From: Podarcis vaucheri
Lineage: Eukaryota
Assembly (NCBI GenBank): GCA_965113315.1
Contig: OZ220368.1
Reading direction: 5' to 3' (one strand)
DNA length: 64,000 nucleotides
In this document: one piece after another, positions 27,501 to 30,500 of the stretch
Layout of the letters: each line of letters starts with the position of its first letter
Position numbering within the stretch: position 1 is the stretch's first letter
Notes under the pieces: generated by a model
Databases searched by the model: none
Told to the model about the DNA's origin: nothing
Seen by the model: only the letters and a program-made list of their open reading frames with translations
Program-made: the position numbers and the translations under genes

Positions 27501-30500
27501 GGATAGATGCAGAGGTAAAGCTGTCTGCCACTTAACTATGGTTATATCCCTGGTCATAATCATAGTTTAAGGTTTACACTGGCACTAGCAATAAGTATGA
27601 CTAAATCCAGAGCAGCATTGCACTTTTGTTGTTGTTAGGTAGGAGTTAGTCAACCAGCAAGTGTTGAAATCCATGCTGTTCGGAGTTCTCATTCTTTAAG
27701 AAGGCAGTGTGGTGGTGCTACATTATTCTGCTTCTCAACTGAAATGTTCCCAAATTATAAAAACCTGACTTGCTTGATTTACCTTGCTTCTCGAGCTTTT
27801 GTATAACGTATGTATCAATTTTTTATTTATTACATGTAATAAATAAATAAAGCTGTAATAAATAAATAAAGCTGTATTTACAACTTTTGCATTGCTACTT
27901 ACATATAATGTTCAGGATGGGTGATTTATTCATTTAATTATATACAAGTGCAATAGAATATAGCATATGAAATGTTACGCTGTAGGTTAGCAGTTGAGTG
28001 TGCCTGATCAATGGTGTGTTGATGTACAGCTCCAGAACTTAAATGAGGGATTATTTTAAGCATAAGGAGCATTAGCATTATGGTCAAAGCTGAGAGGAGC
28101 ATGTTTGTACCTGAATTTGGAAATGTCTTAATGAAAACTCCCCTACAGAAACCCCAAATTGCTGTTTAAATTCCTTTAGAAAACAGTCTGGGAATTGTAT
28201 GCCAGAGGTTTTGAAGAGGAAACAACATTGCTGTAACTGCTTCATTTCCAAAAGGCAAACTCTCAGGAAAAGCACACATGTTGGCTTTGTGCGTGTTTAT
28301 GAGACTCCCAGTGATCTCCGATCCAGATTACTGATAGATCACACTTTCAGTAACACTGAAACACTTAGTATTCCGAGATCTTTCACTTTCCCCTATGAAA
28401 GCTTTGTATATTTGTCTCTGAATCTACCATATATGGCTTACTGTTGTCAGTTTACTTGATTGAACTTTGTTTTATTTATTTGACAATACTGCTTAAGTAA
28501 CAAAAAGCTAAAAAAGCTACTAATTGACCAGAGCCGCCTCTGCCACTAGGCAGACTATGGTGACTGTCTCAGGTGGTAGAAGCCCCCAATATGGCAGCCC
28601 CATGGGCAGAAGCAGCACTGGTATCATCCAAAATTATGTGAAATCTTGTGGAGGGTGCAAGATCTTGCGCAATTTCAGCAAGATCTCACCTGTAATTGGT
28701 GCTGATGCCGACGCCGCTTCTCTGCCAGCAGTAGAGGTGGCCCTGCAATAGATGCTGATTTCTCTTTTGCCATCAGCCATTACAAAAGGTAAAGGCAGCT
28801 CCCAGCTTAGTGGATGCTTAACATGATTGCCTTTACATTGGACTTACAGTATATTTATTTAGTTACAGCACTTCTAAGGAAACTGAAACAACAGTCTAGG
28901 GAAAGTGTTGAGGAAAAGCGACCTCGGTTATTAAAAGCTCTGAAAGAGGTAAGTTTGTAAGGATTTTTCCACCCACATTGGAGAGTATGGAGTCATTACT
29001 TTTCAAACAATTTGTGTGTGATTGCCATTGTGTCCTCATTAAGTGCAAACAACTCAACACAGGCTTTTATTTCTGGGAATTGCTGGCTGAATTGCATATT
29101 GCTTGCTAGTCTGTGTCTTAGAATGACTGACCTGTAGGTCAGTGTTTCCCAACCGGTGTTCCGCGGCACACTAGTGTGCCGTGAGACACCGGCTGGTGTG
29201 CCGTGGGAGGGAGGCGGGCGAGTCGGGCGGCGAGAGGCGGCGGCGGCGAGGATCCGCGTCGAGCCGGGGGCGGCTCCGCGGTGGTGGTGCCGAGCGGCGG
29301 GGCAGCGCGTGCAAAAGGGAGGAGCGCGAGACAGCGGAGGAGGAGGAGGCCGGCATGTCCGGGCAGCAGCAGCAACAGCAGCAGCAGCAACTCCCGGCGA
29401 CGGCTCCTCCTCCGCCCGCTATCGCCGCCACCACCACAACAGCCGCCGCCGCCTCAGCTGCCGCCGTCCCTCAGTCCCTCGCTCTGCTGCCTCCTCCCAC
29501 CCCGGCAAGGGGAAGGGAAAAAACGTTCACTTTTGTGCGTCCCTCCCGGCGTGACGCTGCGCGCTGACGTCACGGGGCGGGGCTTTAATGGTGGTGTGCC
29601 GCGAGATTTTTTTCCGGTAAACAGGTGTGCCGTTGCCCAAAAACGTTTGGGAAACACTGCTGTAGGTGACTTACTTTGCAGCAGTGACATCTTCCCTACT
29701 TAGAGAAAGGGCTTGTGACTGGATATGGCCTATGGGTTGTATGTTCTAAATTCCGGGTGTGGAGTTTTAGTGTTAGGTCTCTGCTATGGATCGTAATTGT
29801 GATTTTAAAAATTAAGTTTCACTGTGAAAAAAATTATGTTTCTATTTTTGTTTTAAAGTCAAGCTGGGTTAATAATGCTTCGTTTACATGTAGCTTCTGC
29901 ATTTTGAAGCTGCAGTGAAATTGGAAGCTGATGTAAATATGTTAAAATATTTGAATAGCATTTAAACTGTGAGCCAGAGATCAGTTCCGAACATACCATA
30001 ATTATTGATATAAGGAGAGAGACAGTTTCCATTTGAGGGAAGGAAAAACTGCTTTTTCACAGTTTCCATTTGTCATGCTAATTCCCATGGACAGAGAAGG
30101 CCTGTTTTAGAACTTTGTACATAAACTGGGTACATAAACTCAGTGGCTCCAATTCAAAGCAAGTTTTTTCTGTTATATCATGCGTTCTCCAGCTGCTTCT
30201 AGATATCCCTCACCCATGTACTATAAGAGGTGCCACAGGTTCCTCATTTTGTTGATCTGGGTCAAAGTTGTTTAGCTTAGCTAGCATTTCATGGTTGACT
30301 CCCTTGCTTCAGAAATAACTAGTTCTTCAGAAGAATGGCTTCATTTGGCAATTATGATCTTGCACAGAAGGACATTTTCTATAAACATAAGCTCTCGGTT
30401 AAGGAGCAGCTATCAAAAATTGTCACCTACACTGACTGCTTTCAAAGGAGAAATGTATTGCTAAAAAAATAGTTACTCTTTGAAAAATCATTTTTAAGAA

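Follow-up and report, generated by a model that had tools for sequence, protein, structure and literature searches.

Mapping of snake orthologues onto the window, the whole 64,000-nucleotide stretch of DNA analyzed here, placed a 520-bp element in intron 4 of the host gene, ANKRD13C, between exon 4 and the start of exon 5 at ∼30860. The element (29140 to 29659) ends in CAGTGTTTCCCAA terminal inverted repeats (TIRs; 29140 to 29152 and 29647 to 29659) that were perfect over 13 bp and 86% identical over 21 bp, and it is flanked by a perfect 8-bp target site duplication (TSD) of the nnnTAnnn type. The short TIRs with CAG as their first bases and the 8-bp TSD identified a hAT element. Repeats of GTGTGCCG, presumably transposase sites, were detected in the subterminal DNA near each end. 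The interior (29209 to 29590) had a GC content of 72.5% and a CpG observed/expected ratio of 1.0, compared to 41.7% and 0.36 for the whole window. An open reading frame of 70 amino acids (29355 to 29567; MSGQ9LPATAP...) runs through a polyglutamine tract and terminates at a TGA within the CRE, which is separated by one base from a GC box. The original prediction had described the TIRs and TSD, the GC- and CpG-rich interior, the ATG with its polyglutamine frame, the CRE beside the GC box and the position in intron 4, and all of these features were confirmed. A second CpG-dense stretch was observed at positions 11000 to 12000 of the window, upstream of the ANKRD13C island (17 to 19 kb). Three weak matches from an Rfam scan, each far under the gathering score, were rejected.

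Table 1. Features of the 520-bp element and its insertion site in ANKRD13C (positions in the window)
Feature	Position	Strand	Remarks
ANKRD13C exon 4	28850..28949	+	Ends 190 bp before the insertion; 5' boundary approximate
Left TSD CTGTAGGT, nnnTAnnn	29132..29139	+	Present once where runs X2 and X3 lack the element
Left end: 13-bp TIR, GTGTGCCG repeats and 24-bp palindrome	29140..29208	+	Common to the clan
GC-rich module	29209..29241	.	Also in many sister families
Captured TCF20 5' non-coding exon-like piece	29242..29294	-	Antisense to ANKRD13C; 98% over 53 bp, G000:C29 ∼42.80 Mb
Captured TCF20 promoter-side piece	29294..29337	-	CCAAT part between the two TCF20 pieces deleted in the 520-bp subfamily
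Captured RANBP9 exon 1: end of 5' UTR, ATG at 29355, polyglutamine	29330..29409	+	
Second RANBP9 exon-1 piece PPPPAIAATTTTAAAASA	29404..29460	+	Joined in frame to the first by a deletion at microhomology CTCCTC
Short module GTCCCTCAG..., then trimmed piece matching the putative TFDP1 island in parent elements	29461..29503	.	
Captured piece of the putative TFDP1 upstream CpG island	29504..29578	-	Antisense to ANKRD13C; CRE TGACGTCA at 29565-29572
GC box GGGGCGGGGC	29574..29583	+	5-bp tandem duplication; not in host or parent subfamilies
Right end: GTGTGCCG repeats and 13-bp TIR (29647-29659)	29588..29659	+	
Right TSD	29660..29667	+	

A 721-bp relative of the element with a longer peptide was found by an exclusion pattern. 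This peptide matched six proteins, of which three were named RANBP9, one was unnamed with the same domains and two were short and unnamed; a SPRY family search brought up so many other genes that RANBP9 could not be picked out. The host RANBP9 gene was located by 12 exon matches (G000:C27:33.787-33.815 Mb), and element positions 191 to 270 and 254 to 321, which include the polyglutamine tract, aligned to its exon 1 in a stretch without flanking TIRs. Eighteen of the 19 other RANBP9 exon-1 loci that were fetched proved to be TIR- and TSD-bounded elements of 1.24 to 1.62 kb containing all of coding exon 1 together with the first part of intron 1, and some also had upstream DNA. Since these parent elements include intronic and upstream DNA besides the exon, capture took place at the DNA level and not by retroposition. 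The captured elements join the part of the RANBP9 upstream zone at 3.06 to 3.16 kb to the part at 6.8 kb (coordinates of locus L188), which suggests that the original capture was ∼4.9 kb and was later trimmed. This upstream zone is broadly CpG rich (L188:3000-3500 and 4750-6500; G000:C27:33.783-33.786 Mb).

A second exclusion pattern produced 114 matches, of which 30 were fetched, and one of these had no transposon ends. This CpG island (C18:81.751 Mb) matched element positions 365 to 439, including the CRE, and 372 bp of a sister class at 95.7%. It is putatively the upstream island of TFDP1, as a DP-domain exon located 19 kb away on the minus strand matched DP-1 in the PDB. A further island (C29:42.80 Mb) matched element positions 103 to 155 and 155 to 198 and is followed 7 kb downstream by an open frame of 1,920 codons, identified as TCF20 by its matches. 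For other genes of this genome, the closest protein matches came from lacertid lizards, which suggests that the organism is itself a lacertid. TIRs were absent beside the matched stretch at each of these host loci and at that of a fumarase-family gene that contributed to sister elements. In total, 294 of 379 interior bases (78%) mapped to the three host CpG islands. The interior is a mosaic derived from at least three genes, together with two short further pieces, and was not born within the transposon. Hence, the prediction that a hAT element had captured host 5' UTR, exon-1 and promoter DNA was upheld, while an origin from one gene was not. A similar division applied to the promoter motifs, since the CRE came from the putative TFDP1 island but the GC box did not arrive by capture: the host and the parent elements read TGACGTCACGGGGCTGTAA at this position, and the GC box is therefore a 5-bp duplication private to the 520-bp subfamily.

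The copy number of this subfamily was examined with a specific 21-mer, for which there were 540 matches in the genome and 0 for the reversed control. In a DNA search, 40 of 1,732 candidates were scored, and all 40 were full-length, near-identical copies. Thirty unselected copies, taken as the first listed 21-mer matches on one contig without selection on similarity, all had perfect TSDs (29/30 in another set of copies) and differed from the family majority by a mean of 2.7 substitutions per copy (0.53%). Segmental duplication was rejected as the source of the copies because the TSDs differed between them; one pair with common flanks (L023/L024) is a segmental duplicate. The ANKRD13C site was bridged without the element in three of four DNA runs of related organisms (X2, X3 and X5), whose flanks were about 0.7 to 1.6% different from the window. 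A clean single copy of the target was observed in X2 and X3, with a further 1-base difference in X5; in the fourth run, whose flanks were nearly identical to the window, the site was not bridged by reads. The empty site in three related runs and the low divergence indicated that the insertion was very recent, in agreement with the predicted youth of the transposon. The ANKRD13C insertion itself captured nothing: it is one of ∼540 copies of an already assembled element.

At least 1,914 further left ends, differing from the 520-bp subfamily just inside the terminus, were detected, and the clan amounts to over 2,400 elements by left ends. Among loci gathered through cargo and end queries, a sample biased by those queries, 162 TSD-bounded elements were assigned to 22 structural classes, one of which is a head-to-head pair. 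TA occupied TSD positions 4 and 5 in 158 of the 162, giving the nnnTAnnn consensus of the Buster group, and the clan is provisionally placed in this group by its ends and TSD. The original prediction had set capture against an interior that is shared by all copies of the family and has no host-gene match. The whole interior was common to all 30 unselected copies; host-gene matches were present, and sister elements carried other cargo, as had been expected of copies with the same ends. An ordinary MITE, with a GC-rich interior that is the transposon's own consensus, such as a transposase promoter, would be consistent with this shared interior and with the absence of any element in the genome combining the exact left motif with different following bases (0 matches; sisters diverge already in the subterminal stretch). 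This explanation is hardly tenable, being refuted already by the alignment of most of the interior to three host gene islands and opposed by the longer relatives with the whole RANBP9 coding exon 1 and intron start.

The sampled cargo of sister elements included a SIX1_SD coding piece, the first exon of a fumarase-family gene and several promoter-like islands. The fumarase-family host locus (L223; G000:C34:55.43 Mb), presumably FH, has Lyase_1 exons downstream. A 1.98-kb class (L196 and L201-L209) combines DNA from four loci within one element, namely, TCF20, 31 bp from upstream of RANBP9, ∼1 kb of the fumarase-family gene start and TFDP1 as putatively assigned. In a 1.26-kb class (L139-L146, L150, L151 and L155; e.g., G000:C39:17.83 Mb), the entire RANBP9 coding exon 1 is preceded by the TCF20 CCAAT promoter piece, the splice donor is slightly changed and the frame is open in many copies; this class could give rise to shuffled exons and to erroneous gene models. 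Elements of a 1.2- to 1.3-kb class (L064, L070-L074, L076 and L087) contain the SIX1_SD fragment in antisense, which we take to resemble SIX5. Promoter-like motifs together with ATGs and splice donors mark the further cargo of L067/L079, L080, L228, L309 and L311, and L080 has a short telomere-like GGGTTA run. A Pfam scan of 82 of the 147 open frames in source-less modules produced 0 matches. A 622-bp family has an AT-rich right part, did not match the four host loci and may be the plain ancestor of the clan.

Many clan elements consist of a complete 96- to 118-bp mini-element, followed by host DNA and then a distal right end. The mini junction was present 106 times genome-wide. Of 85 junctions examined, 76 were composites in which the mini forms the left end and the TSD is matched at the distal end, 3 were stand-alone minis with their own TSD and 6 were ambiguous. 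Five different 8-mers, all with a central TA, directly follow the mini in composites, and the commonest, ACTTAAGT, is present without an insertion in a CpG island that precedes the RANBP9 ATG by 4.3 kb. In variants of the ACTTAAGT junction, the TIR is intact but a few adjoining flank bases were lost or changed, a pattern that cutting and repair of the inner end would produce. Footprint-like joins, in which a new island is connected to old cargo through a target-like 8-mer without a mini, were observed in L311, L065 and L201; in L311 and L065, where the target site at the join was read from the element itself, the mini is now 0.5 to 1 kb further upstream. A target-like site was detected at only 3 of 14 module boundaries compared (RANBP9 upstream and two TCF20 right boundaries). 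Other joins had microhomology, at TCF20/RANBP9 (GAC-GCGG), within RANBP9 (CTCCTC) and at module/TCF20. The joins inside the 520-bp element, the left end of which is not of the mini type, are microhomology joins, which suggests that the cargo was reshuffled later by deletion and by template switching among sisters. Close pairs of clan elements (head to head, in tandem or <3 kb apart) were common (e.g., L061/L062, L180, L196 and L286/L287), and their frequency is consistent with local hopping.

These structures suggested a mechanism that we consider probable. The 520-bp element, a non-autonomous Pack-hAT of very recent origin with target sites of the Buster type, would have acquired its trimmed RANBP9/TCF20/TFDP1 mosaic by composite transposition, in which the left end hops, and would now be carried as methylated passenger DNA. 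Clan elements would land in promoter CpG islands, as suggested by their cargo and by the reported preference of TcBuster for transcription starts and CpG islands (PMC3499496); among present insertions, 0 of 30 copies were in CpG islands. With a mini upstream of host DNA serving as the left end, the transposase would bypass the short right end of the mini for a distal one. The mini would then excise, leave a footprint and reinsert nearby, thereby adding a new island or truncating the cargo, a step to which the three footprint junctions, the five target-like sites and the three stand-alone minis point. Overall, a composite would land in an island, the mini would hop locally and the extended composite would move on, although the order of these events is our inference. 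Microhomology-mediated deletions and switches between sisters would subsequently shuffle and shrink the cargo, for which sizes of 1.6 kb, 1.26 kb, 0.72 kb and 0.52 kb were observed, presumably arising in that order. The shortest version would have been amplified last, to ∼540 copies, with transposase supplied in trans, and the dispersed copies were likely then methylated in the germ line. Several findings weigh against this mechanism: a host locus with both flanking elements still in place, as an unmoved hybrid, was not found in the searches, few of the compared boundaries are target-like, none of the 30 insertions is in an island, the 520-bp element has microhomology joins and a left end of another type than the mini, and the loci searched contained no transposase with clan ends.

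Capture solely by repair synthesis, through gap filling or fork template switching (FoSTeST) into broken elements followed by amplification, was weighed against this mechanism and appears unlikely. The microhomology at the TCF20/RANBP9, internal RANBP9 and module/TCF20 joins would also fit gap repair or template switching, the sources sit on different contigs, and this route is the one proposed for multicopy Pack-TIRs by Tan et al. (2021; PMC8277862). However, repair alone leaves unexplained the complete mini at five nnnTAnnn sites with a matching empty site in a host island, the stand-alone minis and the footprint joins. Repair synthesis is probably a secondary shuffling step within the mechanism of composite transposition. 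An extension of that mechanism is offered more tentatively, with doubt outweighing support. It holds that the clan leap-frogs its mini left end across promoter CpG islands, that donors are mobile by virtue of unmethylated island DNA, and that some of the >2,400 mosaics in lacertid genomes may act as promoters new to a lineage or as shuffled first exons, for example the whole RANBP9 coding exon 1.

Decay at CpG sites was examined as an indirect indicator of methylation. In the 30 unselected copies, transitions were present at 43 of 3,692 CpG sites and at 13 of ∼6,990 non-CpG C/G sites (odds ratio, 6.3; P = 1.6e-10), and four older classes exhibited 2.7 to 3.5% change at CpG versus 0.5 to 0.7% elsewhere. 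This faster decay indicated probable germ line methylation of the dispersed copies; as judged indirectly from CpG transitions, they do not have the unmethylated germ line state of a functional CpG island. A single change was observed in the window copy, and it lies outside the decay-prone sites. A weak comparison of the family majority with the host, in which changes cannot be placed on a branch, detected transitions at 5 of 425 CpG sites, without excess relative to other sites (51 of 1854). Clan sequence was present in RNA reads of a related organism, on both strands and mostly of the sister type, with no pile-up at a start site and no copy to which reads could be assigned. The ANKRD13C exon was not covered by these reads, perhaps through filtering, and this was given no weight. 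Among the sequencing runs listed as containing the element, none was recorded as RNA.

These data bear on the suggestion that the ANKRD13C copy and a sizeable share of the family are working portable promoters, with antisense transcription beginning in the CRE-bearing TFDP1 piece and proceeding across the TCF20 5' piece. The CRE and a half-CRE are intact, a GC box has been gained, the CpG ratio is that of an island-like sequence (observed/expected, 1.0), the putative TFDP1 and TCF20 pieces are in one orientation and the clan is represented in RNA. Against this stand the six-fold CpG decay, the RNA reads, which are ambiguous, mostly sister-derived and on both strands, the absence of the insertion from close relatives, the deletion of both the CCAAT part and the RANBP9 splice donor in the 520-bp subfamily and a layout in which the CRE is downstream of the captured ATG. 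On balance, portable promoter function in the family appears quite improbable, and promoter activity of the ANKRD13C copy is unlikely.

Pack-TIRs are known in animals but rarely in multiple copies. Tan et al. (2021; PMC8277862) list 370 in 100 animal genomes, 208 of them hAT and four multicopy, note that their own pipeline may miss end-bypass cases and, in the main text, do not use the words lizard, Anolis or reptile. Pack-hAT-N8_XT of the western clawed frog resembles the lizard element in being a non-autonomous hAT with a host 5' fragment, present on several chromosomes with distinct TSDs, and animal multicopy Pack-TIRs likewise lean to high GC; the frog element has three copies and one source gene, whereas the lizard has ∼540 copies of one mosaic (PMC8277862). 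The clan further differs from the set of Tan et al. in its >2,400 left ends and serial capture from at least five genes, and its intermediates point to end bypass rather than to FoSTeST (PMC8277862). In the model for Arabidopsis Pack-CACTA (Catoni et al. 2019; PMC6379663), host DNA is similarly mobilized between neighboring elements of the same orientation after end loss, but these are plant CACTA elements, while the lizard inner end is often a complete, still-mobile mini and the cargo is CpG-island DNA. Rice Pack-MULEs resemble the clan in their parents, described as GC rich, in open chromatin, broadly expressed and lowly methylated, and in the methylation of non-expressed copies; they are plant Mutator elements with long TIRs, and ∼40% are expressed, whereas expression of the lizard elements is hypothetical (PMC5861414). 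Bat Helitrons provide a vertebrate parallel, with promoters and first exons, a 5' bias, sequential capture and thousands of copies, but are rolling-circle elements with no TIR or TSD and a different capture chemistry (PMC4224331). TcBuster and other Buster hATs share with the clan the 8-bp nnnTAnnn TSD and small indel footprints (PMC3499496). No report of this clan was found in the mostly open-access literature that was searched. The lizard case is notable for its copy number, its serial promoter capture and its preserved intermediates.

How TIR transposons acquire host genes is under debate, with gap filling, FoSTeST and paired-element capture all proposed, and the animal examples are few and mostly single copy. 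This clan is young and high copy and retains minis, composites, footprints and a deletion series, so that the end-bypass and local-hop route is directly testable in a vertebrate. Furthermore, its hundreds of nearly identical CpG-island fragments occupy separate sites, some of them empty in close relatives, and constitute a natural experiment on the resistance of captured island DNA to methylation. In these lizards, the copies will also complicate gene annotation for RANBP9, TFDP1 and TCF20 and the mapping of RNA or methylation reads to these genes.

A transposase with clan ends was not found at 30 of 64 PF05699 matches (±1.5 kb) or in 18 regions of 7 kb, and 30 loci of the plain 622-bp family contained non-coding elements and no transposase. 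Compared to its parents, the 520-bp subfamily has clustered changes in both subterminal regions (window positions 29149 to 29196 and 29607 to 29646) and a longer left palindrome; the subterminal changes may be tied to its late burst. Three transposase-bearing loci, L229-L231 (G000:C41:13.02 and 14.27 Mb and C42:1.37 Mb), were rejected as a partner because they did not match the clan ends. They are hAT copies that are 98.8 to 99% identical, contain internal repeats and form a separate young family. A further TIR- and TSD-bounded hAT of 4.9 kb with different ends and a 615-codon open frame was observed at L237 (G000:C28:28.73 Mb).
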